Under the pieces are notes generated by a model that made no database searches, was not told the DNA's origin, and saw only the letters and a list, made by a program, of their open reading frames with translations. The position numbers and the translations under genes were made by a program. A stretch of DNA of 26,779 nt. Source: a virus. The stretch lies in UHGV virus genome UHGV-1446736; one strand, written 5' to 3'. Positions 3,405-23,772 of this stretch are shown one piece after another. Every line of letters begins with the position of its first letter. Position 1 is the stretch's first letter.

Positions 3405-3432
3405 AGCAAAAAACCCGCCGGATGGCGGGTTC
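3405..3432 (-). terminator. Rho-independent terminator closing the cargo island
   Basis: Plus strand reads aaaaaa-cccgcc-ggat-ggcggg-tt; on the minus-strand RNA this is a 6-bp GC stem with a 4-nt loop followed by UUUUUU. It lies 20-45 nt downstream of the 123-aa gene stop at 3451. Confidence 0.65.
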
Positions 3433-3450
3433 GTGGTAAATAGTGACTTT

Positions 3451-4579: not shown

Positions 4580-4624
4580 AATAATCCTTAACCCCAGAAT
4601 CAACTGCCTGAAATTGATGTCAGA

Positions 4625-4660
4625 AATGGATTATAGCTTTACTGATTAACCTTTTTACAC
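4625..4660 (-). promoter_or_regulatory. Candidate sigma70 promoter for the two-gene cassette
   Basis: A perfect TATAAT on the minus strand (plus 4630-4635) about 45 nt upstream of the 258-aa gene ATG; the -35 region (TGTAAA-like) is weak. Confidence 0.25.
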
Positions 4661-4971
4661 GGGAAAGACCCGATGATTTTCGGCGCATCCATGCTGTTCT
4701 GCAGCAGCTGGACGTTCAGGAAAGCTTTTCCGTTACGTTTCACAAACTCAAAGCCGTAATTGTTACCATCACGGGAAGGCATCAGGCCCATGTCCATTTT
4801 CATGTTTGAATAGTCACCATCTTTTCCCAGAAATTTTATCTTCTGTGATGTGACAGTTTCACCGTTAATAACAGTCATTCCGTCACCGGTCATCGTGTAG
4901 TTGCCGCACTGAATTGCAGCCATCGCCGGAGCAGTAACCATCATAACTAACGCCAAACATAACCGTTTCAT
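4639..4971 (-). CDS. Small secreted/periplasmic protein of unknown function (signal peptide)
   Basis: ATG at 4971 (MKRLCLALVMMVTAPAMAA...) gives a classic signal peptide with an AxA cleavage site; the mature protein is about 90 aa with two Cys. An AGAGGG ribosome-binding site precedes it and its start overlaps the hub gene stop (TAATG). Confidence 0.55.
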   Translation of the reverse strand: MKRLCLALVMMVTAPAMAAIQCGNYTMTGDGMTVINGETVTSQKIKFLGKDGDYSNMKMDMGLMPSRDGNNYGFEFVKRNGKAFLNVQLLQNSMDAPKIIGSFPCKKVNQ

Positions 4972-6035: not shown

Positions 6036-6037
6036 GC

Positions 6038-6340
6038 TTACTCCGTTGATACCAGTAAATGACTGCGGCCGCCCAGATCAGTTTTCGTGGGATAATCCTG
6101 TGTGTTGTCATCGCAGACCACCACCAGCTTAAAACCAAGCCCCATACAGGCGTACTGCGCCAGCAAGTCAGCACCAGTGACGAGAGGAATACCGGAGATT
6201 ACCGGCTCCCCTCTGTCGTTCTGCAGGTCCATAATCCAGTAAAGATCGCGCCATATGATGCTAATCCGCCAGGTGACACCCCCCAGGACGATGCTGAACT
6301 GCTGATTGTCCGCTGTCAGCGGAATTTCCTGAATTGTCAT
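6038..6340 (-). CDS. Hypothetical tail protein (100 aa)
   Basis: Tightly packed ORF within the tail operon between the tape measure and hub genes. Confidence 0.4.
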   Translation of the reverse strand: MTIQEIPLTADNQQFSIVLGGVTWRISIIWRDLYWIMDLQNDRGEPVISGIPLVTGADLLAQYACMGLGFKLVVVCDDNTQDYPTKTDLGGRSHLLVSTE

Positions 6341-6927
6341 TATCCGCCTCCCAGTAATGACGCCACGTTACCCGTGATGCTTTTCAGCAGTGAAGTATCT
6401 GGAGGCTTTGTGGTTTTGTTGCCGCTGTTCTGTACCGCCGACGTGCTGGCCCCTTCCTTCATGTTGGTTTTATCAGCAACGGTGATCTGCTGTGTCCGGG
6501 AGATAAGGACCTCCCTCAGGGTGAGGACGGCGGACAGGACGTTTTCGGTTGTCTTGTCCGTCGTCACTTCCAGCGCCCGGATCAACATGTTGCTGTACAG
6601 CCGTTTACCGGTTACCACATCGAAGGGGATACGGCTTTCCTGCAGATCCAGTAGCTCCTGATACGTCTGCTGAGGACTCAGGCCGAGCAGGCTGGTAGCC
6701 GTCAGATTACTGGCAAAATCCAGCAATGCGCCGCCACCGGCGAAACCAACCTCCATCACCACTTCTGACGGTTTTTTATAGGCATGATCAGCGACAGCGG
6801 CCCCGACCTCTACCGGATGCTCTGTTATTTCAAGCATATCTGTATGCTTCTCTGAAATAACAACACTGGGAACAATCATTCCTATTTTTCTGCTCTGCTG
6901 ATGAAAAAGTGTAGAGAGAATATCCAC
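6340..6927 (-). CDS. Hypothetical tail protein (195 aa)
   Basis: ORF immediately downstream of the tape measure gene, ATGA-coupled to its neighbours. Confidence 0.4.
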   Translation of the reverse strand: MDILSTLFHQQSRKIGMIVPSVVISEKHTDMLEITEHPVEVGAAVADHAYKKPSEVVMEVGFAGGGALLDFASNLTATSLLGLSPQQTYQELLDLQESRIPFDVVTGKRLYSNMLIRALEVTTDKTTENVLSAVLTLREVLISRTQQITVADKTNMKEGASTSAVQNSGNKTTKPPDTSLLKSITGNVASLLGGG

Positions 6928-8915: not shown

Positions 8916-9092
8916 TATCCTCTCTCCATTTCTCAATGCGCCGCTGGTTATCCGCTTTTACCGCCAGATGGTCATTCAAGAGAGCAATGTCGTACAAATC
9001 GACAGAGCCATCTTTAAGTGCTGTATAAGGAATTAACCCGGCGTCAACCGGATTGAGAAGGTAGGACAGCCCGTCCGGCAGGCTGTTAAACG

Positions 9093-9545
9093 TCAGCCCT
9101 GTTGCAGGCTCTGCGTCGTGCTGGTAAGGGGTGTAGGCAAAAAATTTCCCAGCGAATCGGCGACCACCCGCGCCACCAGATGAAGCATGACCAGCAGGTC
9201 AATATCATCAAACATCAGTTCGCCCCGGGTAAATACCGGCACCCATCCGTCCATATGACGCCGCGACACCACCGCAAGACAGGGATGAATAATCGCATCG
9301 GTGTCATCTTCGGTCAGGGAAGACAGTTCCTCAGCGATACGCGGGAGCATGGTTTCAAACACCGGTTTTAACTGCTCGAATTTCACGGTGTCGATTTTGC
9401 CGTCAGCAGGCAAACGGGAGCGAATGCTCCCGAAATCTGACATCATTCCCGCCAGTACCGGCAGAAGTTTGCGGGTCACTTTCAGCTGGTCAAAAACGCT
9501 GAGTTTTGCCACGCGATATTTCACGCCTTTGATTTCGAATTCCAT
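9093..9545 (-). CDS. Tail assembly chaperone (gpG-like)
   Basis: 150-aa acidic ORF between the tube and tape measure genes, the conserved chaperone position. Confidence 0.5.
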   Translation of the reverse strand: MEFEIKGVKYRVAKLSVFDQLKVTRKLLPVLAGMMSDFGSIRSRLPADGKIDTVKFEQLKPVFETMLPRIAEELSSLTEDDTDAIIHPCLAVVSRRHMDGWVPVFTRGELMFDDIDLLVMLHLVARVVADSLGNFLPTPLTSTTQSLQQG

Positions 9546-9548
9546 GTA

Positions 9549-9989
9549 TTAAAACTCCCCGAGAACCTGGTCAATCTTGCCGCAGTCAAACACCCACGGC
9601 ATCGTATTACCGGTTTTAGCGTTGGCGTTATCCGGTTGTTTCTGGAACGCAACACTGCGTGCTGTGATGATGTCGCCGCTGACCTTGTTGCGGATCACGA
9701 TAACGTTATTCCCCCATGTGGCAGAAGACTGGCTCTGTGCGTTATACGCCAGCGACAATTTTTTATTTGTCGGTGATGTCTTCAGAAGGTTAACGGTAAT
9801 CGTCCCGCTTTTATCTGCATGGAGGCTGTGCATCACTTCACCATCAGCACCGATGGTCATGGTGTTTTTAGGACCGCCCATCGCAACCACAATCCCCTCT
9901 TCAGAACTTGCCGAACCGTACCCGAGGTCAATCGAACCGGTCGGCCCGGTCAGCGTCGCAGTGACATCCATAAAAGAATAGGTAGACAT
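9549..9989 (-). CDS. Tail tube protein
   Basis: 146-aa ORF immediately downstream of the sheath gene; size and position typical of contractile-tail tube proteins. Confidence 0.6.
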   Translation of the reverse strand: MSTYSFMDVTATLTGPTGSIDLGYGSASSEEGIVVAMGGPKNTMTIGADGEVMHSLHADKSGTITVNLLKTSPTNKKLSLAYNAQSQSSATWGNNVIVIRNKVSGDIITARSVAFQKQPDNANAKTGNTMPWVFDCGKIDQVLGEF

Positions 9990-9999
9990 TCACTTCCCC

Positions 10000-11145
10000 T
10001 TAGCGAACAACGTTAATCTGTACGTCAGCGTAATGAACCGCGCCTGCAAGTTTTATTGCAGCCTGAATCACCGGAGCCTTACGGGCTTCACGTTCTGATT
10101 GTGCCTGTTCATCCAGCGGCTGGGCGTATACGTAATAACCTTTGGGCAGCGTGTCACCTGATGACAACTGACCAAGGTCGCCCCCGTTCCATACGCCCGG
10201 AGCAATCAGTCCATTCTGAACGGCCTGATCCAGTGATTTTTCAACATTTGATAACAGTCGGGTAATACCGGCTTCAGTCTGGGGAACTTTCGTGGTGCTG
10301 GTATAAAGCAGGTTATAGAGGTTGGTCTGCACATAATTCTGTAACCAGTCCAAGCCGTGGCGTTCATCAAAGAAATCGCCGTTAGCCATCACTCCCTGCT
10401 GGAGGATAGCCGTATCATTCTGGTAGTACACAAATACATTGCAGTTTTTTGCATCAAGTGCCGATGCCTGGCTGACTGTCAGTGTTTCATACCCGACACC
10501 CGGCTCCTGCTTAAACTTGAGCGTAATCGCGGTATTACTGCCATTGAAATTAACCGTGAATGCCCGGCCAAATGCAGATAACGCAGCGTATTTATTACCC
10601 GATGAATACTGAATAAAACTGCGTGAATATCCGGCGGTTTTCAGTTTTGATGCCAAATCATCTCTGGATGCAGTCTGCAGGCATTTCTCATCGCTTGTCG
10701 TAATCGCCAGAATACGGCTTACAGAAGAGGATTCGATCGCCGCAGCCACTTTCAGCCAGTCTGCATCCGGAATATCTGCATCGTCTGCAATCCCCAGCCC
10801 ATACCATGAAGTATAATCAAGCATGGCATTCACAGCCTGCTCCAGCGTCTCAGGCGTGGCCTGTTCGCTGTCTCCCTTCGTTTTCACCCAACGACCAACA
10901 AAAACCTCCTGAGGTTTCGGTGATTGTGAGAAAAACACCTGCGCAGCCTTATATTCTGGTGATTCCACGCCAAAATCTTTTCCAATATCTTCCGCGGCAG
11001 AATAACGGCGAATGCGCTCACTTACCGGAATGATTGTGGACGGGCCGAGAATGAGTAATGCACCAAAATTTCGCCCTGATGCTGCACGCGGCGACATGAT
11101 CACATCAACATTAACAACGTTTGATACAGGCAAGCCCTGTTCCAT
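10000..11145 (-). CDS. Tail sheath protein
   Basis: 381-aa ORF preceding the tube gene; size and order (sheath, tube, chaperone, tape measure) match Mu/PBSX-like contractile tails. Confidence 0.65.
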
Positions 11146-11148
11146 AGC

Positions 11149-11712
11149 TTAATCTCCGAAAAAGATTACTGGTGCTTCCACCAGCGATTTAATACCGTAC
11201 TCGCGCACAACCTTCCGGCGCAGACGCACCGTCATATCGTAGCGGCGGACCCATTGCTGATTAATAAGTTCAGGGAAGGGAATCAGACCTGTGTAATCGC
11301 CAAGAGACAGCCCCAGCGCATTCAGTGCTGCATTGTTCTGCGGCACAGATATACCGTCACGAAACCGGGACGCATACACCATCCCCGCCGGTCCATAAAA
11401 CGAAGCCATACACTCAATCGTTTCATGCCGCCAGAGCTGAGAGCCATCATCGGTCTGTCTGGTGAATGCCGGACTGTCATCACCTGACCATCCGATAACC
11501 CCAAACGCACACCAGTTCGTTTCAACCGGTAGCAGTGGCGGCTGCTCTTTCTGCCAGCGCGGGCGAACCATCCCGGCAGACAGACCGGAAACGTTACGCA
11601 TCCACTGGCTTAACAGCCTGTCGAGCGCTTCGTCATAATCCGGATCGCCACTGGTTGGTATCAGCCATCCGCGCTCTGTGCTGGTGTTATTGCTCAACCG
11701 GAATTCCCCCAT
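11149..11712 (-). CDS. Hypothetical virion protein (tail completion / head-tail joining region)
   Basis: ORF in the head-tail joining block; the start is uncertain (track start 11757, an internal Met at 11712 reduces the overlap with the upstream gene). Confidence 0.35.
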   Translation of the reverse strand: MGEFRLSNNTSTERGWLIPTSGDPDYDEALDRLLSQWMRNVSGLSAGMVRPRWQKEQPPLLPVETNWCAFGVIGWSGDDSPAFTRQTDDGSQLWRHETIECMASFYGPAGMVYASRFRDGISVPQNNAALNALGLSLGDYTGLIPFPELINQQWVRRYDMTVRLRRKVVREYGIKSLVEAPVIFFGD

Positions 11713-12076
11713 CAAACGGCAGCAACTCACAATGCGCCTGAACGAATCCGGCACCATAAGCTGTATACGGGTCGACGAAGGTCACACGATAATCACGGCC
11801 CTGATACGTCACGATATCGGCATCACGGCCAGTCTGTCCCTGCGTCAGTCGCGCAGTCGTCACAATCAGAATTGCACCACTGATTACCTGCCCGGCCTGC
11901 ATACGGCGGTTTTCCAGAGAGCGATCAACAGTTACGACTCCGGCAAACTGTTTTTTAACTTCGCTGTCGCTGCCGATCCCGTCCTCATCCACCGTTTGCA
12001 CTCGGCGTGTTACCCACAAATTGAAGTCGCAAAAATCGGGGTCAAAAAGCACATCTGTTACATCAAGAGTCGGCAT
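11687..12076 (-). CDS. Hypothetical virion protein (129 aa)
   Basis: Compact ORF coupled to neighbours between the capsid and sheath genes. Confidence 0.35.
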   Translation of the reverse strand: MPTLDVTDVLFDPDFCDFNLWVTRRVQTVDEDGIGSDSEVKKQFAGVVTVDRSLENRRMQAGQVISGAILIVTTARLTQGQTGRDADIVTYQGRDYRVTFVDPYTAYGAGFVQAHCELLPFDGGIPVEQ

Positions 12077-12617
12077 CTTTATCCCTCACTACATGGGTAA
12101 TCGCTCTGCGATATTGCCCGGTGTCAATTAATGGTTTCGCCAGATCGGTTCCGGGAGATTCGCCAGCAGCACGCCGGGCAAGTTCCAGTGTTGCTCCCTT
12201 GCGCCCCCGACGAGCCCGGGCTTCAACAGTACTGTCAGCAAGCGGCGTAAAGCCGGTAATGGTCATGTAACGCCTGACACCATTAGCGGCCAGCGTTCCG
12301 GCACGGTTGAGTGCGCTTTCCGCTCCCGCAGCATTACCATCAAGTGCAGCCTGCGCCGCGGCTTTAAGCTGCGGCACCGTCAGCTCTTCTGCCGATTTAA
12401 CGCCGGGGACCAGGTGAGGTCGTGGCGGGATGTTCTGCTCTGGTGAGCCGTATTCGTTGAGGTAACCGATGCCCGCATTACCAAACGGAACATCATCCCG
12501 TTCGCTGTCTTCCGAAGGGATGCCGACCAGCACATCTTTTTTGGTTAACGACCTGAGCGCATCCAGAATGGCCTTAGCGTTATCCACCCTCGTTGTTACA
12601 CCGCTTTTGAAACTCAT
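12063..12617 (-). CDS. Putative head completion / virion morphogenesis protein (184 aa)
   Basis: Position after the capsid gene and connector-like gene; no motif-based support. Confidence 0.35.
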
Positions 12618-13021
12618 AGCTGGCGACCACCTGCACCGAACATCGTGATCAACTGATAAAATTCAGCGCCATATCGGGTGTTATTCCAGAAACCTGCATC
12701 AGGATTCAGCGTCGCGCTGGTGTCATAACTGACGCTTACCTTATCCACGGACTTTGAGGACTGAACACCATTGGTTGAACCGCCCGGCCCGCCAGCCAGC
12801 ATCGCCCGGCTGTCTGCCGCCCAGAGCGTCATGTAGTGTGCAACGAACAATCCGGCAAAGTACGGAAACAACTTTTTGCCGGTGACGTTTTCGCTCAGCA
12901 GTTCATCGGCCAGATTCAGACGAAACTGGATTTGCGCTTCGGGATATTTGGCAAGGTCAGCAAACTGCGGGAAGTCGCGGCGAAAATCACTTACCGCTGG
13001 CAGACTTTGATTCTTTGGCAT
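12614..13021 (-). CDS. Putative head-tail connector protein (DUF4054-like)
   Basis: 135-aa ORF in the gene block following the major capsid gene; assignment by synteny and vague family recollection. Confidence 0.35.
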
Positions 13022-13208
13022 TTTTTACCTCGTTACGCGCGTCTGTGGCTTTGCCAACGGATACTTCCGCGTGCGCACGAGTGAACCAGTGCGTGGCAAC
13101 GTCTTCCTCCACAGCATGACGGCCTTTAACAAACTCGCGCCGCGAACCGTCGGGAAGCGTGAGCACAAACGGGGTATGTACGTGTATTACTGCATTATTT
13201 TTTGCCAT
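12987..13208 (-). CDS. Small hypothetical protein (73 aa)
   Basis: Short ORF between the major capsid gene and connector genes on the coding strand; could be a real small head protein or spurious. Confidence 0.3.
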
Positions 13209-13249
13209 CAGGTCATCCTTAATGGCCCCGCCAGGGGGCCATATGGCTG

Positions 13250-14191
13250 TTAAATGCCATCAACGTACGAAATGGTTTCTTTGTACACTGGCTCGACTGC
13301 ACCCAGCTTGCCGTAGTAAGTGACGATCTGATACAGACCGCGATACTGCACCGGCACGCTCTGAAGCGGAACCAGCGGGTAGCGGACGTATTTTTTATCG
13401 TTGGTGTACGCAACCATGCGATCCTTATTCCCCACACCACGGCCTTTCAGCCATTTAACCGCGCGGATATTCAGCGGAACACCGTTCTGGTGATAGCTGA
13501 TGGTGTTGGTCTGAAGGTACGTCAACAGGGACTGGTTACCCGCAGAAGAAACGATGATGCTGGACAACAGAGCAAACTGCTCAGGCGGGATCAGCAAATC
13601 ACGCGGAACCACAGAGTAACCAGAAGCGGCCCACGCATCAGACAGCACCTGGTTAATGCTTGCGCGGATTTCGTCCGGTGTTGAGGTTGCCCACGTTTTG
13701 GCAGCGTTGTTGACAGGCACGCCGTCCAGGGTAACAAGACCTTTCAGGTTTAACGCTGAATCGCCAACATACACCTGTTCATCGTTATCCATCTGCCATT
13801 TCAGTTGCATCCCGTCATACTTCTGCGTATCGATCGGGCGTCCGACCTGCTGAGCAGCCTGCAATTCTATGACCGTCCAGCCAAGTTCCATCCCCCACAG
13901 GTTCAGCGGGTTACCGGATTTGCCAATATCCACATTTACGCCAGCAATAGCGGTTGAGTCTTTGCCTACCCAGTTTTTGCCATTCGGATTTGCACCAGTA
14001 CCCGCAGCGGCGAAGCTGGTATTCGTCCAGCTGGAAATGTCATCTGCGATAGAGACATCTTCACGCAACTGAATATCGCGGGTCCAGGTGTACCCCACCA
14101 GTGGCAGGTTCAGCGTCTGGTCGAGTCGCTCCAGCTCCCCGATGAGAAAGGCACCAGAGCTGTCAACGGTTGCCTGATCAAAAGTAATCAT
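13250..14191 (-). CDS. Major capsid protein
   Basis: 313-aa ORF downstream of the scaffold/protease and small head protein genes; size and position typical of the major capsid gene in PBSX/Mu-like head modules. Confidence 0.6.
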   Translation of the reverse strand: MITFDQATVDSSGAFLIGELERLDQTLNLPLVGYTWTRDIQLREDVSIADDISSWTNTSFAAAGTGANPNGKNWVGKDSTAIAGVNVDIGKSGNPLNLWGMELGWTVIELQAAQQVGRPIDTQKYDGMQLKWQMDNDEQVYVGDSALNLKGLVTLDGVPVNNAAKTWATSTPDEIRASINQVLSDAWAASGYSVVPRDLLIPPEQFALLSSIIVSSAGNQSLLTYLQTNTISYHQNGVPLNIRAVKWLKGRGVGNKDRMVAYTNDKKYVRYPLVPLQSVPVQYRGLYQIVTYYGKLGAVEPVYKETISYVDGI

Positions 14192-14202
14192 TCGTCTGTT
14201 CC

Positions 14203-14709
14203 TTAAATCTTCCAGGAAATTTCTGCATTGCCGTCAGCATCACCGGCACCTGTGAATTCAGCGTTGGTCAGCGCCACGTTTTTGCCACTGACTGACGTGG
14301 ACATGAATCCACCCAGCGGCACTTTGATGGATTCATCAGTGGAGACGACAACGTATACCGGGTCGCCTTTTTTGATGGTGCTGGCATCAAAATCAGAACC
14401 GAGATTAACGGTCACGTAGCCACGCTTCATGGCGTCGCCCGGGAAGTTCTTGCCACTCCCCACCTGGCGAACCATGTCCGGCTGCGAAGTGGTCGGATAA
14501 GGGCGCACGTAGATCCCCTTCACCTTGTCTGCGGTATCACCATCTGCCAGCGGCACGAAAAAACCGTCATCATCGTATTTACCAGCCAGCCCATAGGCAG
14601 CGAAGGCGTTATCGGATTTAAGGACCACCGGTTCGACGGTTAAGTCCTGCGGGCGAGAGACAGCCCCGGCAATGCCAACAGGCATCCGGTACAGAAATAC
14701 ATTATTCAT
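14203..14709 (-). CDS. Head structural protein (possible decoration/scaffold-associated, DUF2190-like)
   Basis: 168-aa ORF between the XkdF-like gene and the capsid gene. Confidence 0.4.
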   Translation of the reverse strand: MNNVFLYRMPVGIAGAVSRPQDLTVEPVVLKSDNAFAAYGLAGKYDDDGFFVPLADGDTADKVKGIYVRPYPTTSQPDMVRQVGSGKNFPGDAMKRGYVTVNLGSDFDASTIKKGDPVYVVVSTDESIKVPLGGFMSTSVSGKNVALTNAEFTGAGDADGNAEISWKI

Positions 14710-14712
14710 TTT

Positions 14713-15933
14713 TTACCCTTTACGGTTTGCCCAGAATTCAGCGTTTTGTTTGTTCAGGGAAGCGATACTGGTCATGCCCATGTTTGGGCGCTGTGCATCG
14801 CCGGTGGTGGCGCGGGTGTTTCGCCCTTTGGCAATCTCAGACACGGCATTAAACGCCATGTCGACCGATTGTTTCGGTAATTTGCGGATATCCGCATCAC
14901 CGACTATCTGGCGAACCAGCGTTTTGTCAGCAGAAGCCAGAACCTCGCGTTTGAACGCGGTCGGTTTCATCTTACGGCTCAGATCGATACCCGGAACGAT
15001 AACTTCGGCACGCCAGGCTGAGTCACCAGTAATCGTGGTTTCCTCTTCATCGTCCTCGCCGTCACCGGTCGGATTATCGTCAGGCTTATTGTCGTTATCG
15101 CCCGTCGCATTTCCTTCCAGCTTAGCCAGCAGGGCTTTCAGTAATGTTTTGAGGTCATCATCACTGTCGCCGGTTGGACCTCCGCCCATCTCTGGTGCTT
15201 TGTCCGGTAGCGGTTGCTGCGGGGACAGGTTGATGTTGAGATTAACGCCCTGCGGCAAATCCCCCTCATCTCCTGTAACCGATGCGGGAGCCGACTCCAC
15301 CAGTTCGTTCATGGTGTCAGCGTCACCCGTTTTGATGGCCGTGCGCATGCGGGTCCACCAGCTTTTCTTTTGATTTGCCATTGTGTCTCTGTCTCCAATT
15401 GCACAACGATTTCCGGCTCTACCTTTAGGGACAAGAGCCACATGGTTTCCGGTAATATCGACCTGCTCGGCTTTACCTGGCTCGGTCTGCTCATACTCCG
15501 CGTCATAGCCGCACGACACTTCGCGCAGGCCATCTTCGATAAGCTGAATGGCGCTTTCGTCTTTAACGATAAGGTCAGCCAGCATCAAATCAGACTGCTC
15601 ACCCGTCCCGCGCCGGACATTCTGAAGGTGCCCGACAGCAAGCTCTTTCCAGTTCTCGGGATTTACCAGCCGCACATTCCCGTTTTCATCTTCAGGATGC
15701 AGAATCGTGATGCTCATCCCTTCGAATGAGGCAAGCGTGGCCGGATGGAATACCTGCTCAGGAGAACGCGTGACGACTATTTCACCGAACTTATCGGGTT
15801 TCAGTTTTGGCAGGTCATCAGCGCCATAGAGCTGCTTACCTGTTCGTCCTATCGGCACGTCTTTGCACAGCAACGAGCCGTCAGCCAGCTGATAGCGGGT
15901 TTCCCCCAGCCGGGTATTGAAAAAATATTTCAT
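14713..15933 (-). CDS. Putative prohead scaffold/protease (DUF2213, XkdF-like)
   Basis: 406-aa ORF with a highly acidic, low-complexity C-terminal half (GDSDDDL, DGEDDEEETT), downstream of the portal and Mu-F-like genes. Confidence 0.55.
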   Translation of the reverse strand: MKYFFNTRLGETRYQLADGSLLCKDVPIGRTGKQLYGADDLPKLKPDKFGEIVVTRSPEQVFHPATLASFEGMSITILHPEDENGNVRLVNPENWKELAVGHLQNVRRGTGEQSDLMLADLIVKDESAIQLIEDGLREVSCGYDAEYEQTEPGKAEQVDITGNHVALVPKGRAGNRCAIGDRDTMANQKKSWWTRMRTAIKTGDADTMNELVESAPASVTGDEGDLPQGVNLNINLSPQQPLPDKAPEMGGGPTGDSDDDLKTLLKALLAKLEGNATGDNDNKPDDNPTGDGEDDEEETTITGDSAWRAEVIVPGIDLSRKMKPTAFKREVLASADKTLVRQIVGDADIRKLPKQSVDMAFNAVSEIAKGRNTRATTGDAQRPNMGMTSIASLNKQNAEFWANRKG

Positions 15934-15947
15934 GTGTTACCTGCGAT

Positions 15948-16721
15948 TCAGGCGGGATAAGAATGGGAGGTGGGAAAAACGATTTCTTTATAACAGCGAC
16001 AATTCGGGAGCTCGCCAGCGTGACCGGTCATGCCATCAAGCGTTGGAGGTTTGCCCCATTCGACAAATTTACCTTCCATTTCCCGATGAGAATGCCTGAC
16101 GTCACCATCTTCGGCTGTACGCCAGATATAACCATTCGAACCAATTGACAGCGCACGCGCCTGATCCAGCGCGCCGGTTGCACGTCCAAGTTCAGTACGG
16201 GCAATCAGGTCAGCTCTGGACTTTGCTATATCACCCGATGCGGCTATTTCTTTAGCAAAATCTTCCGCTCTCCCACCGGTCACAACAGCTTCTGTCGCCC
16301 GATTCTGGATGTCGTACACCCTGTCAGCCGCCTCGAGGGGGAGCGATTTGATGTACTTGACCTGTTCGGCGATGATGGATTGCATCACCTGGCCCACAGG
16401 AGCGCTTTCCACAAGATTGCGGAGCTCGCGACTGATGTTCTTGCTGTGTTGCCGCCAAACTTTCTCGTTCTGCCGGGTTAGGTCCGCAGTAAAGTTTTCC
16501 GCGACCTTTGTCGCCCAGGGGGTGATGATTTTACTGTAGCGTTCCAGCGCCTCAATAATTTCCGTGATACTGTCATTTGAACCATCGTAGTGACCATTGA
16601 CGATGTCTCCGACCGCCCGCGCTATCCTGCGTAGGCTGGTTCGATAGCGGATTTCCGCCTGACGGTTCCTGCGGTTCGTCATCAGGTTCGCCGATGCCGG
16701 GCGGCGCTTCATCTTCGGCAT
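15948..16721 (-). CDS. Head morphogenesis protein (Mu gpF / SPP1 gp7-like)
   Basis: ORF following the portal gene, the conserved position for this family. The track start overlaps the portal 3' end by about 149 nt, so the true start is probably internal and undetermined. Confidence 0.5.
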   Translation of the reverse strand: MPKMKRRPASANLMTNRRNRQAEIRYRTSLRRIARAVGDIVNGHYDGSNDSITEIIEALERYSKIITPWATKVAENFTADLTRQNEKVWRQHSKNISRELRNLVESAPVGQVMQSIIAEQVKYIKSLPLEAADRVYDIQNRATEAVVTGGRAEDFAKEIAASGDIAKSRADLIARTELGRATGALDQARALSIGSNGYIWRTAEDGDVRHSHREMEGKFVEWGKPPTLDGMTGHAGELPNCRCYKEIVFPTSHSYPA

Positions 16722-18039
16722 TCTCGATGTCCTCGTCGGTAATGGATGCCCCGATGCCGGTTACGTCAGAATTTTCGCGCAAATCAGTCATAGCGGCTTT
16801 CAGTGTCATCAGACCATCACCCAGCGCCGTACTGATTGCGTTGGTGGTGTTTAACGCCACCGTTGAGCGATCGACATCAGACATTTGCCAGAGCGGGTTA
16901 AACTCAAACGTGAAATCATCCGGGAGCGGCTTGCCAAGTTCCGAACGATGCATGATGTCCAGTATCCGACGCACCGGAAGACGTAAACGCCTCTCCTGCA
17001 ACGAACTGATGCGGTCGTAATAGTTGGCAAGGTCTGCATCACCGGTAGAAAATCCTTTCGGGGACTGTCCGAACAACCGCACCAGTGGGATACCAACAGC
17101 GCCACTAATCTGTTCTGCAAACTGTGATAGGATGTCATCCAGACCACTGAAGCTGTACTGATGCGTTTCAAACTTATCCCGCGAGTCCATGAGCGTCATG
17201 CCTTCATTGCTCTGGAACTGTCGAATCAGGTCGATATTCTTCAGCAACGCTTCATACGCAGGACCACCAAGTGCGATAAGCTCGCGTAGCTTCTCCACGC
17301 TGTAGGTACGCAAATGCGCTTTGTAGACCAGCTGCGCCGCGCCGACAGTAGCGCTGTCGAACGCGGTAAGACGATCCCAGATACGCTCTACAACCGACAT
17401 TCCCCATTCGTTCTCGGTCATCTTCTGCTGAAATGGCAGCGTGACGCCATCAAAGCGAATCAGTCGACTGTGATGAATGCGCCAGGCAGGAATTCCCGTT
17501 GCTGTGGTCACCACATCGTAAAACTCAGGTTTACCCAGGTCCGGCCCCATATCTTTAATGCGGCGGGTCAGTACCGGGTCAATCATCCAGCGGTCGAGCG
17601 GGAGAATCCCCTTAAACTTGCCCTTACCGATGGTTTCGGGTCGCAGCGGGGTCATTGGTGCCTGCCCCTCAATCATGATGAAACCCACCGCGCCGCCGTA
17701 GAGGCGCGACCATTTCAGCACGTCATTCAGCGCATCCCAGATTTGCAACTCATCCAGTTGTGATTCGAGAATGCCGCGATCTTTTGCATCAATTTCCGAA
17801 GTGATGCGAATGCCTTTGCGGGTCATATCATCCGGGATAGCATCGACCGCTTCGCCGATAATCCAGGACGAACGATAGGACCATTCCACCAGCATGCGGT
17901 TACGACTGGTGAAATTAGCCCGGTAGGTGGATGCTGAGTGCTGGTTAGGTGTCTGCATCCCTACGCGGGCAATAAAATTCTCATAACCATCGGCTGTGGC
18001 CTGCGCAGTTCGCCGCAGGGCTTGTTTGTTTCGTGCCAT
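16573..18039 (-). CDS. Portal protein
   Basis: 488-aa ORF immediately downstream of the large terminase gene with an acidic C-terminal tail. Confidence 0.75.
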   Translation of the reverse strand: MARNKQALRRTAQATADGYENFIARVGMQTPNQHSASTYRANFTSRNRMLVEWSYRSSWIIGEAVDAIPDDMTRKGIRITSEIDAKDRGILESQLDELQIWDALNDVLKWSRLYGGAVGFIMIEGQAPMTPLRPETIGKGKFKGILPLDRWMIDPVLTRRIKDMGPDLGKPEFYDVVTTATGIPAWRIHHSRLIRFDGVTLPFQQKMTENEWGMSVVERIWDRLTAFDSATVGAAQLVYKAHLRTYSVEKLRELIALGGPAYEALLKNIDLIRQFQSNEGMTLMDSRDKFETHQYSFSGLDDILSQFAEQISGAVGIPLVRLFGQSPKGFSTGDADLANYYDRISSLQERRLRLPVRRILDIMHRSELGKPLPDDFTFEFNPLWQMSDVDRSTVALNTTNAISTALGDGLMTLKAAMTDLRENSDVTGIGASITDEDIENAEDEAPPGIGEPDDEPQEPSGGNPLSNQPTQDSAGGRRHRQWSLRWFK

Positions 18040-19661
18040 CAGGCCTGTCTCCCTAGCAACTCCCAGATGTTCAGGGCTGAATTCATTGGGGCATAGTTGA
18101 TCATCACCGAGTCGGCAAGGTTTGGCGACCGGGTTCCATCAGGCTGTTTATCAATAACGATTTTTCCCACACCATTAATGGAATAGGTCGGCTGCGAAAG
18201 CTCGATGATGAGTTTATCTTTGAGTGCCATGCTACTGCTGATTGAGATGATTTCGTCCGGGTTGTAAGCCATACCTTCAACCACGGCGCGCCAGGTATTC
18301 TGAAAAAGTTTACGTAACCGCCACCAGCTCTGGGCTTTGGCGTTAGCGAAGAAGTCCTTGTTCAGACGTGCGGCTTGCCCGTTGTCCCCGCGAACAGCTT
18401 CATCATCCGGATCAAATACCGCGCCACTACCTCGAAACGGTGTGGCGAGTATTGACGGTCGACGCGCAGCGTTACGCAGTTCGTTGATAGCGCGTGCATC
18501 GCCGCGAACGCCAGCGCCCAGTCCGTCCTCGTCAAAGCGAAACTCTTCGAGGTTATCCTGTTCGCAAAAGCCGAAAACCTTCTCGACGGACTGATAAATG
18601 TCGCTGCCCACACCGGACCATTCCCGCACATTTTCCAGGAGGAAGCCATGACGGGTGGAAAAGGCATTTTTGTCCCTGCCTTCGTCGGCGACATCCATCG
18701 CGCCAAGTCGTTTGCCTGTTGGCTGGATACCCAGTTTGATATGCGCATCAACGGCAGCCTGTACCCATTCGGATGGAATCAGGACGCCTTCCGCTGATGC
18801 GCTGTAGTTCAGATCAAGTTCCTGTGCCACCACCACCGGATTATCGATTTTCTCGCATTCCCTGCGATACCACTCTTCATCCTTGCGAGGATCATCCCGC
18901 CAGTGGAATGTGAATACCGGTATCTTCCCGCCATGACGCTTCTGAGCGAACGGGTTAGCCATGCCGTTAACTGAACTCAGGTCGATACGGCAACGCGTCG
19001 TTTGTGACAACGCCGCATCAATCAGCAGAGGACGCTGAAGGAATGCAGCCTCATCAACCAGATAAAGCGTGGTACGGTCACCACGACCAATATTATCGCC
19101 AGCCTCGCCTTTGATAACGGCACCAGTTTCAGGAAACTCAACACGCATATATGGCGCGTGCTTCTTCTCACTCCACGAACCGCGAAACTCTACAGGTAGC
19201 GTTTCCACGAACTTGCGCGCCTTCCAGAACAATGCTTTCGGGTCACCGGTGCTGTCGACGTATTCCTCTTTACGGGAGCCAAAACCGATAACCATTTCTT
19301 TGTTGAAGAGACAAAGCGAGCATGCCAGTCCGATCGCGGTCCAACTGAGCCCCATTTCACGGGATTTTTCGGTAATACCATTCTCCCGATTGCTCCAGCG
19401 TTCCATAATCCAGTGGATCCACTCCTCCTGCTTAGGGAAGAGTAAAAACGGAATGGTCACCGGCAGGCCATAATCAATATTACGCGGGTCCGATGTCATG
19501 CCCCAGTCGATGATGAACTGAGCCGGATTGGTTCGGTAAAACTGTTTTAGTGCAGGCAATATTTCAGGATTCTGGCGAATGCGCTGTAGGCGTTCCATCC
19601 GCCATTCAAAAACCATCTGGTAATCAGGATGTTTAAAATCGAAGGGGAATGGTAACGGCAT
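18039..19661 (-). CDS. Terminase large subunit
   Basis: 540-aa ORF after the small terminase gene; contains a Walker-B-like hydrophobic stretch ending in DE ([11 protein letters not shown]) and a C-terminal nuclease-type region; ATG confirmed at 19661. Confidence 0.85.
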
Positions 19662-19663
19662 AC

Positions 19664-20215
19664 TTAGCCCATCATTTTTCTATACGCTTCTGCAACCTGC
19701 TCCGGCGTTAAGTTGGTAATTTCTGTTCTGACTGGTCCTCCGTCAGCACCAGTCACTTCATTTTTGACATTGTCTTTAAACGCCTGAACAGAAACATGAC
19801 GCCCGAGCAACTCAAGGTTTTTAACCTTATCAGGCCATTTGATTTTCTTCAGAAGTGCGGCGCTATCTGCGGATGCCATCTCCACGACATCCATTCCTGA
19901 TAACGTTGTGCGCCATACCTTAGGCCAGTCTTTAATGGGTTTTAGCTCACCGTTTTGCAGGAGAATGTCAAGCACATCCATCTGGTCGATTTCAATAAGG
20001 CGATTAAGTACATATTCTGCATTAATACCAACAAGATCATTGCGTTGCGCTTTCAGTTCGGCGATTCTTAACTTGATGTCAGGTTTTGACAGGTTTTCGG
20101 ATGCGGTACGGTTGGCTGTTTTTGCGCTGTACCCCGCCCGAATAGCCGCTTGCGTGGCGTTTAAATCGATGAGGTACTCGCGACAGAACATCTCTTGCTT
20201 GTCTGTGAGTGCCAT
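19664..20215 (-). CDS. Terminase small subunit (P27/Terminase_2-like)
   Basis: 183-aa ORF starting [30 protein letters not shown], the N-terminal signature of this small-terminase family; ATG confirmed at 20215. Confidence 0.8.
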
Positions 20216-20235
20216 TTTTTCTCAAAGGTGAATTT

Positions 20236-20667
20236 ATGAGCTCATTAACGTTTATCGGATTGTCACAGTTACTTTCTAGGAAAGGTGAGTTATTACAGCA
20301 AAATACGAATGATTTATTAGAACGTGTTAACACCGCATGGAATAACAAACGAGACCTTAATAAGCAAATTTCCATAGAGCTAAATGATGGAGAGCTTGAG
20401 GTTTCAATTCCACAGCTACGCTTTAAGTGTTTTACAGAAAGTAAGCTTTCACTTCACGAAGGCTCATTAATTGGGGTTATTACTTTTTACACATCGCGAG
20501 ATGGAAAAAAACAGGAGTTTCATAAAATTTTTCTTGATTGGAACAATTGCATGCATTTTGGGGCGCTTGACTCAACAGCTCCAATAGACATCGACTATAC
20601 CGAAGATGTTGAGTATCTCTTTATGAACGCTCTAATCGATTCTGCTTATCGAAATAATTTAATCTAA
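20236..20667 (+). CDS. Orphan plus-strand moron gene, hypothetical 143-aa protein
   Basis: The only convincing plus-strand gene in the window: ATG at 20236 with AAGGTG 5 nt upstream, markedly AT-rich, no signal peptide or transmembrane segment, no motif I recognise. It sits between terS and the lysis cassette, where lambda carries bor. Confidence 0.6.
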   Translation: MSSLTFIGLSQLLSRKGELLQQNTNDLLERVNTAWNNKRDLNKQISIELNDGELEVSIPQLRFKCFTESKLSLHEGSLIGVITFYTSRDGKKQEFHKIFLDWNNCMHFGALDSTAPIDIDYTEDVEYLFMNALIDSAYRNNLI

Positions 20668-21109
20668 TTGATGTTGGTGGTGAACTTTTGCCACCCAGTT
20701 AATCACTCTTAGCAGGATATAAGCCATTGTCGAGACCACTCATTGAATGGTCTCTGCAATAACCGATGTCTTTCCATCAGTCCGCCACCACAAAGAATCT
20801 TTTTTGCCATAAGGCAGGAGGTTCATCTTTCAGTGGCTGCCAGTGTTATTTCCCCACTTACTGGCTTGGGTTGTTTCGCTGTACTGCCGTAACTGGTTGC
20901 CCAGAATAAATTCCGGTTTCATTATCAAGCCCACCCGTAGATAGGCTTTGTAATTAACTGGCTCTTATCTCAACGCAGCCCCTTACCGCGCGCCAGATGC
21001 TCAACTTCAAGCATCAGCAATGAGATGTTTAATCTGGATTCACTCCAGAAGTGATCACCACCCTGTCTACAGAGCCAGATGTGAAGGATGATGAGTAAAA
21101 TTATCGCTA

Positions 21110-21547
21110 TCATCGAAGGCATTGCGTCCTGATGTATTCCTGCAAGTAGTTAACCTGCGCGGTTATCCTGTCGATTCCACTTTGGAGACGGTAATAATTG
21201 AGTTCAGCATCTGCTGTAAGTCTTGGGATTTCTCCATCGCCCATGCTGCTGGCTCCGGTCGTTGACTTTGCACAGGTGGCGGCGACTTGCAGGCGCTTAC
21301 GCCCAGCAGAAACATCAGCACGGAGGCTTTCGATAGTCGCGTTAGCATCAGCAAGCTCCTTTGTGTATCTGGCGTCGAGTTCTGCTACATCACGTTGACG
21401 CTTCTGCATATCAGCGATGATGGATGTGGCTTTATTGCGCTGCTCTTTGTAGGTCATGGCGTTATCACGGTAATGATTAACAGCCCATGACAGGCAGACG
21501 ATGATGCAGATAACCAGAGCGGAGATAATCGCGGTTACTCTACTCAT
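21110..21547 (-). CDS. Rz: Rz inner-membrane spanin (i-spanin)
   Basis: N-terminus [29 protein letters not shown] matches lambda Rz as I recall it; the ATG overlaps the endolysin stop (ATGA). Confidence 0.85.
21163..21348 (-). CDS. Rz1: Rz1 outer-membrane lipoprotein spanin (o-spanin), embedded in Rz in the +1 frame
   Basis: ORF wholly inside Rz in a different frame; ATG at 21348 gives [20 protein letters not shown] with a lipobox (LLGVSAC) followed by a Pro-rich mature part ([11 protein letters not shown]). Confidence 0.75.
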
Positions 21548-22041
21548 TGTTGCCCCCACAAACAGACTTCACGCTCAATCTCACGGCGAGTCATCAGCCC
21601 TTTCCATTGCTTACCGCCAGCGTATGTCCAGCGCCGTAGCTGATCACATGCGCCTTTGATATCGCCCTGGTTTATTTTGCGAAGAAGCGTCGATGTTCTG
21701 AAATTTCCAGCACCAACGTTGTAAACGAACGAGTAAAGAGCGCCGCGCGTTGTTTCCGGTATATCGACTTTGATGTACGGGTTAATTTGTCTGGCGACAG
21801 TGGCAAGGTCTTTATTCAGGAGGGCTTTGCATTCTGCTTCGGTATACGTTTTACCGAGCATAATGTCTTTTCCGGTATGCCCGTAACATACAGTCCATAC
21901 GCCAACAATATCTTTATATGGTATGTAGCTGACACCTTCCAGACCATCGTCACCACTCGGACCAGTGATAAGCACAGACGCTATGGCAACAGCCCCACCA
22001 CCAATAGCAGCTGCAACAGCCTTGCGTAATGATGGCGACAT
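21544..22041 (-). CDS. R: SAR endolysin (signal-anchor-release lysozyme, phage 21 R-like)
   Basis: 165 aa; N-terminal Gly/Ala-rich weak transmembrane segment ([20 protein letters not shown]) followed by a T4-lysozyme-like catalytic region; closely matches phage 21 R as I recall it. Confidence 0.88.
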
Positions 22042-22256
22042 TATTCACCTCTCGCAGCCTTACGCTTGTCTTCTCTGATTTTGAAGTACAGATTTGTCAG
22101 ATAAGTCAGGAATCCCAGAACCAGACTTCCCAGCACACCAATTGCAGCCCACTGTGACGGACTGACCTGATCCAACCACTGTAAAAACCAGTATCCCGCA
22201 CTACCCGCGGATGTTCCGTAGGCAATGCCAGTAGAGATTTTGTCCATTGATTTCAT
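22041..22256 (-). CDS. S: Class II pinholin with dual-start motif (phage 21 S21-like)
   Basis: 71 aa beginning [10 protein letters not shown]..., with ATGs confirmed at 22256 and 22247 (Met1 and Met4), two transmembrane segments and a charged C-terminus; matches S21. Confidence 0.88.
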
Positions 22257-22374
22257 AGCAACGCCTCCGCAAGTAACGGATTGCGTAGTTCTTATATTGG
22301 GAAGGGGAAAAAAGAAGGCCGCGGCATAACTATCACTGATGAGTTCAGGATAGCCAGTGGCTACGGCTCAGTTA

Positions 22375-22450
22375 TGGTGCTGGTTAACGGACTTGAACCG
22401 CTACCCATTCGCTTACAAGGCGACTGCTCTACCATTGGAGCTAAACCAGC
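22375..22450 (-). tRNA. tRNA-Thr (anticodon UGU), 76 nt with encoded CCA
   Basis: Minus-strand sequence GCTGGTT-TA-GCTC-CAATGGTA-GAGC-A-GTCGC-CTTGTAA-GCGAA-TGGGT-AGCGG-TTCAAGT-CCGTT-AACCAGC-A-CCA folds as a cloverleaf: 7-bp acceptor stem, 4-bp D stem with GG in the loop, anticodon loop with U33 and A37, canonical T-loop. Resembles E. coli tRNA-Thr. Confidence 0.65.
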
Positions 22451-22455
22451 ATATT

Positions 22456-22530
22456 TGGCGGGACAGCGTGGACTCGAACCACGATAAGAAGGTTAACAGC
22501 CTTCCGTAATGACCTTTATACGACTGACCC
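22456..22530 (-). tRNA. tRNA-Asn (anticodon GUU), 75 nt with encoded CCA
   Basis: Minus-strand sequence GGGTCAG-TC-GTAT-AAAGGTCA-TTAC-G-GAAGG-CTGTTAA-CCTTC-TTAT-CGTGG-TTCGAGT-CCACG-CTGTCCC-G-CCA: perfect anticodon and T stems, T-loop identical to E. coli tRNA-Asn, but one T:T mismatch in the acceptor stem and one in the D stem. Confidence 0.5.
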
Positions 22531-22533
22531 AAA

Positions 22534-22575
22534 TAAAAAAAGCCACCGTTGCAACTTAAGAGTCACTAACGGCAG
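22534..22575 (-). terminator. Candidate tR'-like terminator downstream of the late promoter
   Basis: Minus strand reads CCGTT...(17 nt)...AACGGTGGC followed by TTTTTTTATTT; the stem is weak and the loop long, so strength is uncertain. Confidence 0.3.
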
Positions 22576-22618
22576 CTTATGCCAATAGTGTTGCTCATTT
22601 GCTCAATGATGTCAACAC
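22576..22618 (-). promoter_or_regulatory. Candidate Q-dependent late promoter (pR'-like) with qut region
   Basis: A consensus TTGACA -35 hexamer lies 7 nt after the Q stop codon on the minus strand; the -10 is not canonical (CACTAT/ACTATT about 19-20 nt downstream). Location right after Q matches lambdoid late-promoter architecture. Confidence 0.3.
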
Positions 22619-22621
22619 GTT

Positions 22622-23110
22622 CTATGCTACATGTTTAATTTTCTCTACACGTTTCCGATTTTTAAACGCACTATCCAGAACCGGGTAAATCATAAACAAC
22701 GAGGCATTAAGGATTTCGTCAACTTCCCGTCGACAGGTTGCGAGCGATGGTTTTTGAATGCGCCCGCCGCCACGGCATAACATCTTGCGAGGTCTTGCGA
22801 CGCGATGATAGTAAGATGCAATGGCGTGCTTGGAAGAGCCATGAGCGTAGTAGCTGAGGAGGATTCCAAAGGCTTTCTTGTCAATGTACATGACGGAATC
22901 GACGACCTGAGAAATCAACATTCCATCATCATCATTACACATTGGCCTTGTCATAACTCTTCCCGGCTCTACGCTCTCCATGAACTTCGCTATTACGCTG
23001 CTCATGCGCTTTTCCAGACGACCTGAATAAACCCATGCGCCCCACAGTTCAAGCCAGCCATTCAGCCACTCATGCTGTTCTTTGGTGAGGTTTAGTTCTC
23101 TTATGCCCAC
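22622..23110 (-). CDS. Q: Late-gene antitermination protein Q (non-lambda allele)
   Basis: 162-aa ORF between ninI and the late promoter/lysis genes; GTG start at 23110 with GGGAGAAGG ribosome-binding site, overlapping the ninI 3' end by 10 nt; Cys-containing region ([10 protein letters not shown]) as in Q-family antiterminators. Confidence 0.7.
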
Positions 23111-23772
23111 GCGCCTTCTCCCTGTACCTGAATCAATGTGAGATTTCCGCAGAATACTGCCCCAGTATCGATATACATCTGGTTGGCAAATTTGAGTGGT
23201 TTCACTGCTGGCGTATGACCAAAGATAAACGTGTCCGCGCCTTTAATTTCTTTAACGATCCCGTCTTGTGAGTTGCTGATTCGTTCGCGGTTCCAGATTA
23301 CCTGCTGATGATCAACTGGCTTTCCAAATTCGTATTCGTCACAAGGATAATCGGCGTGGCAGATGACATATTTTTTACCTTTGCTCACCAGTTCGATGAT
23401 TAACGGAAGTTCTTCTGCTTTATGGGCAAGAGCTTTAGCCAGAATTTCTTTGTCGTAATCGAGATTAAAGAACCAGCCACCGCCATTAAGCAGCCAGTGA
23501 TTAACGTTTCCACGCTCTGATAAGCCATCAATCATCATTTGCTCATGGTTTCCACGTACAGCTCTGAACCAGGGGAATGTGATTAATTCCAGGCATTCAA
23601 CGTTCTCTGCACCACGATCAACCAAATCGCCCACCGAGATAAGCAGGTCTTTTTTGTTGTCGAATCCAATCGTATCCAGTTTGTTCATCAGGTTCGTGTA
23701 GCATCCGTGCAGATCGCCAACTACCCAAATATTTCGGTATTTGCTGCCATCAATTCTTTCGTAGATATTCAT
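23101..23772 (-). CDS. ninI: Ser/Thr protein phosphatase NinI
   Basis: 223 aa with calcineurin-like metallophosphatase motifs (GDLHG, GDLVDRG, GNHE); near-identical to lambda NinI as I recall it. Confidence 0.9.

Follow-up and report, generated by a model that had tools for sequence, protein, structure and literature searches.

Two tRNA Genes behind the Late Terminator

The DNA analyzed here is a stretch of 26,779 nucleotides (nt) from the virus genome UHGV-1446736 (hereafter, the window), and the element in question is a tandem of transfer RNA (tRNA) genes, Thr(UGU) and Asn(GUU), at positions 22375-22530. The pair had been predicted from the sequence alone. ARAGORN and Rfam agreed on both genes and on their coordinates (Table 1), and ARAGORN called only these two tRNA genes, Thr(tgt) and Asn(gtt), in the whole window. 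Against the Rfam model RF00005, tRNA-Thr scored 61.5 bits (E 2.9e-11) and tRNA-Asn 55.3 bits (E 1.4e-9), both far over the gathering score of 29 and both covering model positions 1-71 of 71. No other Rfam family was found above threshold by cmscan anywhere in the window. The 3' CCA is encoded in both genes, as the original prediction had it, and follows the discriminator base (A73-CCA in Thr, G73-CCA in Asn).

The anticodon loops are 7 nt long with U33 and a purine at position 37 (CUUGUAA in Thr, CUGUUAA in Asn), and positions 36-41 read U-A-A-G-C-G in tRNA-Thr and U-A-A-C-C-U in tRNA-Asn. The T-arms are GGUUCAAGUCC and GGUUCGAGUCC, and both tRNAs have a T-loop of the GGUUCRAnUCC type. In E. 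coli, the identity elements listed for threonyl-tRNA synthetase (ThrRS) are G1:C72, C2:G71, G35, and U36, and those listed for asparaginyl-tRNA synthetase (AsnRS) are G34, U35, U36, and G73. All of these were present in the respective tRNAs, tRNA-Thr having A73 as well. The variable loop of tRNA-Asn has 4 nt, and two of its pairs are non-canonical in the cmscan alignment: U13·U22 in the D-stem and U4·U69 in the acceptor stem, the latter being the T:T mismatch already noticed from the sequence. The D-loop of tRNA-Thr, CAAUGGUA, is unusual, with a C where cmscan aligns the near-universal A14; it is invariant in seven aligned Thr sequences of the lambdoid family, and the canonical loop AGU(U/A)GGUA is found in the Thr(UGU) of N4, a P1-like phage, and the host.

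The two genes share their strand, the minus strand of the window, with Q and the lysis genes, which bears out their earlier placement on the coding strand between Q and the lysis cassette (21110-22256), past the late promoter. More precisely, they stand directly after the late terminator, in the order Q21, pR' with its Q-binding element (QBE), tR', tRNA-Asn, tRNA-Thr, S21 pinholin, SAR endolysin, and Rz, so that the S21 holin is the first late protein-coding gene past the tRNAs. The interval that holds the 3' end of Q is 98% identical at the DNA level to phage 21, where the gene is annotated as an antiterminator. The coordinates of pR' and its elements were transferred from the phage 21 record by pairwise alignment, and in the pR' stretch the two sequences have a single mismatch, which falls at 22583, past the −10 element but ahead of the start site. 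No difference from phage 21 is seen in the pause element or in tR', for which the phage 21 annotation cites PMID 1704887 and PMID 31663818; in phage 21 the region has been characterized experimentally. The RNA of tR' folds with −20.2 kcal/mol (z score −6.1; 0 of 200 shuffles were as stable), and its U-run stops at the first base of tRNA-Asn.

Since a strong terminator reaches to the first base of tRNA-Asn, read-through by Q should be needed for expression of the pair. The tRNAs would then be the first RNAs made once Q-modified polymerase passes tR', as judged from this architecture and from phage 21, for which Q-dependent read-through has reportedly been demonstrated in the literature that its record cites. 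A sigma-70 scan of 22000-23200 for an independent tRNA promoter returned one weak site, inside Q, that was no better than shuffles; the scan is crude and also missed the real pR' and tR', so that this negative is a weak one. Taken together, we regard it as almost certain that both tRNAs are genuine, functional, and Q-gated genes.

Table 1. Positions of the tRNA genes and of the surrounding late-operon features in the window.
Feature	Position	Strand	Basis and details
Q antiterminator, phage 21 type (Q21), 162 amino acids	22622-23110	minus	Pfam PF06530 Phage_antitermQ, E 8.8e-25
Late promoter pR', phage 21 type	22580-22615	minus	transferred from phage 21 record
pR' −35 hexamer TTGACA	22610-22615	minus	phage 21 annotation transfer
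Q-binding element ATTGAGCA/AATGAGCA, between −35 and −10	22592-22607	minus	phage 21 annotation transfer
pR' −10 element	22587-22592	minus	phage 21 annotation transfer
Transcription start	22580	minus	phage 21 annotation transfer
Sigma-dependent pause element	22573-22579	minus	phage 21 annotation; sequence identical
Intrinsic terminator tR'	22531-22578	minus	hairpin 22540-22578, U-run 22531-22539; identical to phage 21
tRNA-Asn(GUU), 75 nt	22456-22530	minus	ARAGORN and Rfam
tRNA-Thr(UGU), 76 nt	22375-22450	minus	ARAGORN and Rfam
Conserved 3' tail of the cassette	22308-22374	minus	hairpin 22318-22367, then CUUCUUUUUU 22308-22317
S21 class II holin (pinholin/antiholin)	22041-22256	minus	Pfam PF04971 'Bacteriophage P21 holin S', E 1.4e-35
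SAR endolysin (lysozyme)	21544-22041	minus	Pfam PF00959, E 7e-47; phage 21 annotation
Rz spanin with embedded Rz1 frame	21110-21559	minus	Pfam PF03245, E 2e-35; phage 21 i-/o-spanin annotation

Distribution and Mosaic Structure of the Cassette

A 351-nt interval had matches in 92 phage records and, among 5,426 complete E. coli genomes, in 977; annotation of the genes as tRNA-Thr and tRNA-Asn is routine there. An identical tRNA-Thr occurs in phage 21, Sf6, SfI, BTP1, HK446, mEp506, Bas106, and many Salmonella P22-like phages, and both tRNAs are 100% identical to those of phage 21, HK446, and BTP1. In 2013, the paper on SfI had already placed 'two tRNA genes in tandem' after Q and named Sf6, ST64T, PS3, and phage 21 as further carriers. 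With annotations in many records and this discussion for SfI, the feature is thus already known. By its sequence, the pair is the Asn(GUU)-Thr(UGU) cassette that is standard among lambdoid and P22-like phages, found here in a late operon of the phage 21 type. The paper on the BTP1 prophage, examined for evidence of expression, does not mention the tRNAs.

Phage 21 (OL657228.1) shares the gene order and shows 99% mean column identity from the 3' end of Q to the start of the holin gene, with the same promoter, Q-binding element, pause element, and terminator. It differs from the window by a few point changes in the flanks (e.g., 22583) and in the 3' tail, and by the structural module, which in the window is of the vB_EcoM-606R2-like myovirus type. 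In HK446 (NC_019714.1), the two tRNAs lie at 1421-1495 and 1501-1576, neither being annotated in the GenBank record. Its tRNA-Thr matches that of the window at 76 of 76 positions, and the upstream tRNA-Asn and the 3' tail are identical too, but the cassette stands behind a Q, pR', and tR' of the lambda type and ahead of a lambda-type holin.

In a three-way alignment of the window, HK446, and BTP1, identity starts in the T-run of whichever late terminator precedes the tRNAs (21 type in the window and BTP1, lambda type in HK446) and stops about 62 nt past tRNA-Thr, near 22313, with distinct holin modules beyond. We take the cassette to be a mosaic unit with these boundaries. The tail hairpin folds with −23.4 kcal/mol (z score −4.1), and the tail is kept in HK446 and BTP1 through ...GCGGCCTTCT, after which the sequences diverge. 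In the 21-type context the hairpin is followed by the U-run CUUCUUUUUU, which gives it the look of a second intrinsic terminator or of a 3' stabilizer; other sequence is found at that place in HK446 and BTP1.

The window is itself composite. Its structural half (56-19846) is 97.4% identical to myovirus phages of the vB_EcoM-606R2 type, while late control and lysis are of the phage 21 type, which makes the prophage a mosaic of contractile-tail morphogenesis and lambdoid regulation. A comparable mosaic of a contractile tail with lambdoid regulation has been described for SfI and SfV.

The comparison with Shiga toxin (Stx) phages in the original prediction also holds as far as the position is concerned. 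The ileX/ileZ-arg tRNAs of Stx phages, of which the Stx2-linked ileX is cited in the SfI paper, occupy the same slot, with the antiterminator or late terminator on one side and the downstream late genes on the other, and Klebsiella prophages carry tRNAs there as well. In the latter, homologous Asn and Thr genes have been retained at 91-95% identity, but the insertion of Phe(GAA) and Arg(UCU) gives the order Asn-Phe-Thr-Arg.

Outside this group, Asn(GUU) is also found upstream of Thr(UGU) in the P1-like phage RCS47, where the two are adjacent, and in N4, where they belong to one cluster. The Thr genes of RCS47 and N4 are 81% and 87% identical to that of the window and share its C31-G39 pair. 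In contrast, their Asn genes represent a different lineage, 91% identical to each other, 58-62% identical to that of the window, and devoid of U4·U69, and the genomic context is not a Q-gated late leader. The arrays thus range from Asn-Thr in RCS47 and Asn-Phe-Thr in the bat-faeces siphovirus Flyfo Tbat2_3 to Asn-Phe-Thr-Arg(UCU) in three Klebsiella phages and Asn-Ser-Thr..Pro in N4. The same two specificities therefore recur across unrelated phage types, and the Asn...Thr pair, going by these gene orders, seems to act as an expandable array.

Comparison with the Targets of Defense tRNases

Host tRNAs with these two anticodons are substrates of several defense nucleases. AriB of the PARIS system cleaves host Lys(UUU), Thr(UGU), and Asn(GUU) at 40|41, within U36-A-A-U39-C40. 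On tRNA-Lys, cutting is abolished when U39 is changed to A, inhibited by C in place of A41, and impaired by C in place of U16, and a contact of the second AriB monomer with D-loop positions 16-17 has been proposed. The Lys, Thr, and Asn tRNAs of T5 jointly neutralize PARIS. Thr(UGU) is in addition a secondary target of HepS, which is encoded by the Gifsy-1 prophage and cuts it as well. The Asn and Thr tRNAs of temperate phages are discussed neither in the PARIS papers nor in the eLife paper on tRNA evasion.

A preprint of July 2026 reported that OLD of phage P2 is a tRNase that cuts after nt 27-29, its depleted targets being Thr(UGU), Gly(UCC), fMet, Val(UAC), and Pro(UGG) (bioRxiv 10.64898/2026.07.10.737580). 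In that study, expression of viral Thr(UGU), including the tRNA of the lambdoid phage HK446, brought the plating of the OLD-sensitive phages HK97, HK542, and Bas34 back, with the HK446 tRNA to nearly wild-type levels, and E. coli Thr(UGU) was without effect on OLD-restricted plating; the direct evidence of stability under OLD concerns the Bas32 tRNA rather than that of HK446 (bioRxiv 10.64898/2026.07.10.737580). As tRNA-Thr is identical in HK446, the window carries the very sequence that was tried against OLD. In the same preprint, HK446 is said to encode 'a single' Thr(UGU) (bioRxiv 10.64898/2026.07.10.737580). A further difference from the window is that HK446 encodes the anti-OLD protein Oad2; the window does not span the recombination region of its own prophage.

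We compared both tRNAs with their host counterparts at the positions concerned. Host thrU has A27-C-U-G-A31, U39-C-A41, and U16, whereas tRNA-Thr of the window has G27-U-C-G-C31, G39-C-G41, and A16, so that the OLD cut region at nt 27-29 reads GUC instead of ACU. Host asnT has U39-C-C41 and U16, whereas tRNA-Asn of the window has C39-C-U41 and A16. Both tRNAs of the window thus bear the anticodon of a host tRNA that is hit by a defense nuclease (OLD, AriB, and HepS for Thr, AriB for Asn), and both differ from the host at AriB positions 16, 39, and 41, determinants that were mapped on tRNA-Lys only. The pair C31-G39 was present in all phage Thr(UGU) examined (the family of the window, T5, N4, and P1-like), compared with A31-U39 in the host.

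The T5 tRNAs offer a parallel. They include the same two anticodons and likewise lack U at position 16, and host U39 is replaced in both phages (A39 in Lys, G39 in Thr, and G39 in Asn of T5; G39 in Thr and C39 in Asn of the window). They are, however, separate genes, with 61-64% identity to those of the window, and form part of a large array, some 24 tRNAs in all, with promoters of its own and no Q-gated terminator ahead of it. The Lys(UUU) needed against PARIS is also among the T5 tRNAs and is absent from the window: set against the full targets of PARIS (B185) and OLD, the window provides its two tRNAs only, without Lys(UUU). By analogy, the cassette may work like the anti-PARIS tRNAs of T5. 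We did not accept a base other than U at position 39 as proof of resistance to AriB. Such bases are common among tRNAs, and the Asn tRNA of RCS47 has the complete sensitive motif; the pattern is consistent with resistance, and is no evidence of it by itself.

Codon Usage

Codon usage was compared between 37 open reading frames (ORFs) of the window and 42 annotated genes of MG1655. The Thr codon ACA was found at 12.0 per 1000 in the window versus 5.4 per 1000 in MG1655 (odds ratio 2.2, p 1e-7), with peaks in the lysis genes (23.6 per 1000) and in the AT-rich ORF 20209-20667 (19.9 per 1000). ACA is the eighth most enriched codon, behind AGG (6.4-fold), AGA (4.9-fold), CGA, CGG, AUA (2.8-fold), GGA, and UCA, for none of which the cassette has a matching tRNA. 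Among Asn codons, AAC was not enriched (odds ratio 1.05) and AAU was enriched 1.65-fold, giving 1.28-fold for Asn overall. In agreement with these values, the SfI paper reported in 2013 the same ACA bias (17.3 versus 7.1), and its authors left the Asn tRNA unexplained by codon usage.

The idea that the tRNAs supplement rare codons is therefore upheld by the enrichment of ACA and is not upheld by the seven unserved codons or by AAC. A partial benefit of codon supply is plausible for Thr, and codon supply is a poor explanation for Asn, all the more as E. coli has four asn tRNA genes. Could faster translation of late or cargo genes that use ACA (and AAU/AAC) account for the cassette with no role in defense? 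Besides the bias shared with SfI, the Klebsiella arrays fit this explanation in that they add Arg(UCU), which decodes the rare AGA, and the tRNAs of Stx phages decode rare AUA and AGA/AGG, as expected of codon supply. However, extra E. coli Thr(UGU) gave no rescue in the OLD assay and the phage version did, which indicates that the sequence of the tRNA matters and not its dose alone. For these reasons, we consider codon supplementation unlikely to be the whole explanation.

Structural Constraint and Other Explanations

Pairs were counted on the cloverleaf in diverged members of both families, from SfI, Oslo, the bat-faeces siphovirus, the three Klebsiella phages, N4, and P1-like RCS47. In the tRNA-Thr family, 96.4% of the cells were paired and six pairs showed changes on both sides; its covariation score was reached by 0 of 500 shuffles, and slid controls gave 0-1 such pairs. 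In the tRNA-Asn family, pairs 6:67, 7:66, and 28:42 changed on both sides, with no such pair in any slid control. Anticodon loops, T-loops, and discriminators were unchanged across the family. U4·U69 was kept in four of the five distinct Asn sequences. The fifth, tRNA-Asn of Salmonella phage Oslo (221-295), has G69 for U69, which makes a U·G wobble, and was the sole family member found with a closed pair at this position.

These data bear on whether the tRNAs serve mainly as punctuation for RNA processing, so that cleavage by RNase P and 3' processing would trim off the pR' leader and determine where the late mRNA starts or how stable it is, with decoding incidental. The genes do have the terminator leader immediately on one side and the first late gene on the other, and the strong conserved hairpin after tRNA-Thr moves with the cassette. 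Nevertheless, the anticodon loops and the aminoacylation identity elements are fully conserved, the stems covary like those of working tRNAs, and the tRNA had a biological effect when supplied in trans in the OLD assay. Moreover, lambda, HK97, and HK542 are not among the 34 phage matches listed for tRNA-Thr at an identity of at least 99%, yet they are viable. A role confined to punctuation is thus very unlikely.

The authors of the OLD preprint raised for HK446 the idea that the tRNA compensates for a host tRNA gene disrupted by prophage integration (bioRxiv 10.64898/2026.07.10.737580). Many temperate phages indeed integrate into tRNA genes, SfI for instance into thrW. That gene is Thr(CGU), whereas the cassette supplies Thr(UGU) and Asn(GUU) and, placed between Q and holin, is remote from every att site. 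Being gated by tR', it should be mostly silent in the lysogen, and its identity in phages with differing Q, holin, and structural modules means that it is not tied to a single integration module. In phage 21, moreover, the integration site, icd, is no tRNA gene. We therefore rejected this idea, which fits neither the position, nor the gating, nor the anticodons, as highly improbable.

No more credible is the suggestion in the original prediction that tRNA-Asn may be partly decayed, taken here to mean a pseudo-tRNA hitch-hiking beside a functional Thr gene: its mismatches U4·U69 and U13·U22, a minimum-free-energy fold at a z score of only −1.7 versus shuffles, and the non-canonical Thr-position gene of ST64T, by which decay is possible within this cassette, are outweighed by a score of 55.3 bits, by 100% conservation across phages of E. 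coli, Shigella, and Salmonella, by an intact anticodon loop, T-loop, G73, and CCA, and by the Klebsiella relatives, in which three pairs change on both sides and U4·U69 is retained. The z score of the Thr gene is equally weak (−1.7), which is usual for single tRNAs. Decay was accordingly rejected on the family covariation with the mismatch retained: the persistence of U4·U69 while neighboring pairs covary points to a tolerated or selected feature.

The ST64T gene deserves a description of its own. The Asn gene of ST64T (NC_004348.1) equals that of the window, and the gene at the Thr position (~1581-1652) has tRNA-like acceptor, D, and T arms, with an anticodon arm CCUUC-CUAA-GAAGG that has a short loop and no UGU. 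ARAGORN made no call for it. Either this copy has decayed, or it is a tRNA-like RNA that serves another role.

The body of tRNA-Asn is closer to E. coli tRNA-Gly(UCC) (glyT; 69% identity) than to the host tRNA-Asn (62%), and U8-C9 and the D-arm, UCGUAUAAnGGnnAUUAC, are nearly identical in tRNA-Asn and glyT. The sequence hints at an origin by a switch of anticodon and discriminator in a Gly-type tRNA. Gly(UCC), the nearest relative of this body, is itself among the listed targets of P2 OLD.

A Possible Role of the Cassette in Counter-Defense

We favor counter-defense, that is, the replacement of host tRNAs destroyed by tRNases, as the main selective benefit of the cassette, with a probability of roughly 0.55. 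Rival mobile elements carry tRNases that cut host tRNAs, such as OLD of P2 and AriB of PARIS in P4-like satellites. In the mechanism that we propose, Q21 would load on RNA polymerase at pR' and read through tR', so that both tRNAs would be made at the onset of late gene expression and released from the late-transcript leader by RNase P and 3' processing. With a host-like anticodon loop, and an anticodon stem and D-loop altered where the nucleases recognize or cut, they would allow the ACA and AAY codons of the late proteins still to be decoded. Added decoding capacity for ACA, which the phage uses about twice as often as the host, would be a secondary benefit. Support for this proposal comes from the identity of tRNA-Thr with the HK446 tRNA tried against OLD, the differences at AriB positions, the replacement of U39 in the T5 tRNAs that neutralize PARIS, the cutting of Thr(UGU) by HepS, the recurrence of Asn-Thr in RCS47 and N4, and the poor fit of codon supply.

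Several points weigh against it. Expression, charging, and nuclease resistance of the window's tRNAs are all inferred, and the enrichment of ACA means that codon supply may matter equally. As for OLD, the result comes from a preprint and from plasmid expression, not from the native late operon; the HK446 Thr alone did not rescue lambda and did not relieve the toxicity of OLD in recB cells, and mapping traced the escape of HK446 itself from OLD to the protein Oad2, the authors hedging on the role of the tRNA (bioRxiv 10.64898/2026.07.10.737580). The cassette offers no replacement for the other tRNAs that OLD depletes, namely Gly(UCC), fMet, Val(UAC), and Pro(UGG) (bioRxiv 10.64898/2026.07.10.737580). 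As for PARIS, the system that was studied requires a resistant tRNA-Lys(UUU), a tRNA that the cassette does not include, and the determinants of AriB were defined on tRNA-Lys and on neither Thr nor Asn. The lack of U39 in eight of nine such phage tRNAs has a chance probability of about 0.2 by a rough estimate, and the Asn tRNA of RCS47 has the full host-like U-A-A-U-C-A motif. Finally, since the anticodon loops are the same as those of the host, evasion of a loop-cutter such as HepS is not predicted.

A bolder version of the counter-defense proposal can be put forward only tentatively, and we would not bet on it: the Asn-Thr tandem may be a dedicated two-tRNA module against TOPRIM tRNases of the OLD family (P2 OLD, PARIS AriB, and relatives), moving as a mosaic unit of about 230 bp among lambdoid and P22-like phages and paralleled by the pair in P1-like and N4-like phages, with tRNA-Asn as an AriB-resistant replacement. 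If so, the Gly(UCC)-like body, U4·U69, C39, and the absence of U16 in tRNA-Asn would be functional, and the nucleases aimed at would be those that rival P2 prophages and P4-like satellites direct against temperate enterobacterial phages. Other possible selective agents, not used here as evidence, are colicin E5, which cuts Q34 tRNAs including tRNA-Asn, and the CdiA-CT toxin of EC869, which cuts the acceptor stem of tRNA-Gln and tRNA-Asn.

As a genome feature, the cassette is ordinary: phage 21, Sf6, SfI, BTP1, and many E. coli prophages have annotations for the same two tRNAs. What makes it worth attention is why small temperate phages should retain just these two, a question raised explicitly for Asn in 2013. 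It can now be answered in concrete and testable terms: PARIS has three main targets, of which host Thr(UGU) and Asn(GUU) are two. The host counterpart of tRNA-Asn is thus a known PARIS target, and were the phage tRNA-Asn also nuclease-resistant, the cassette would be a compact, naturally mobile anti-defense module, of use for predicting which prophages are compatible and for the choice or engineering of temperate phages able to evade tRNase-based immunity.

An AT-Rich Reading Frame near the Lysis Genes

The AT-rich ORF at 20209-20667 (GC content of 0.357 compared with 0.51 for the whole window), on the plus strand and thus opposite to the late genes, lies between the small terminase gene and Rz, in the region 20216-21109. 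It shows the highest use of AAU in the window (53 per 1000), and its product of 152 amino acids had no Pfam match. It is probably a moron or cargo gene. In an otherwise identical prophage of E. coli SCU-171, different genes are found at this spot (YodC family, DUF6953, and S1 peptidase).

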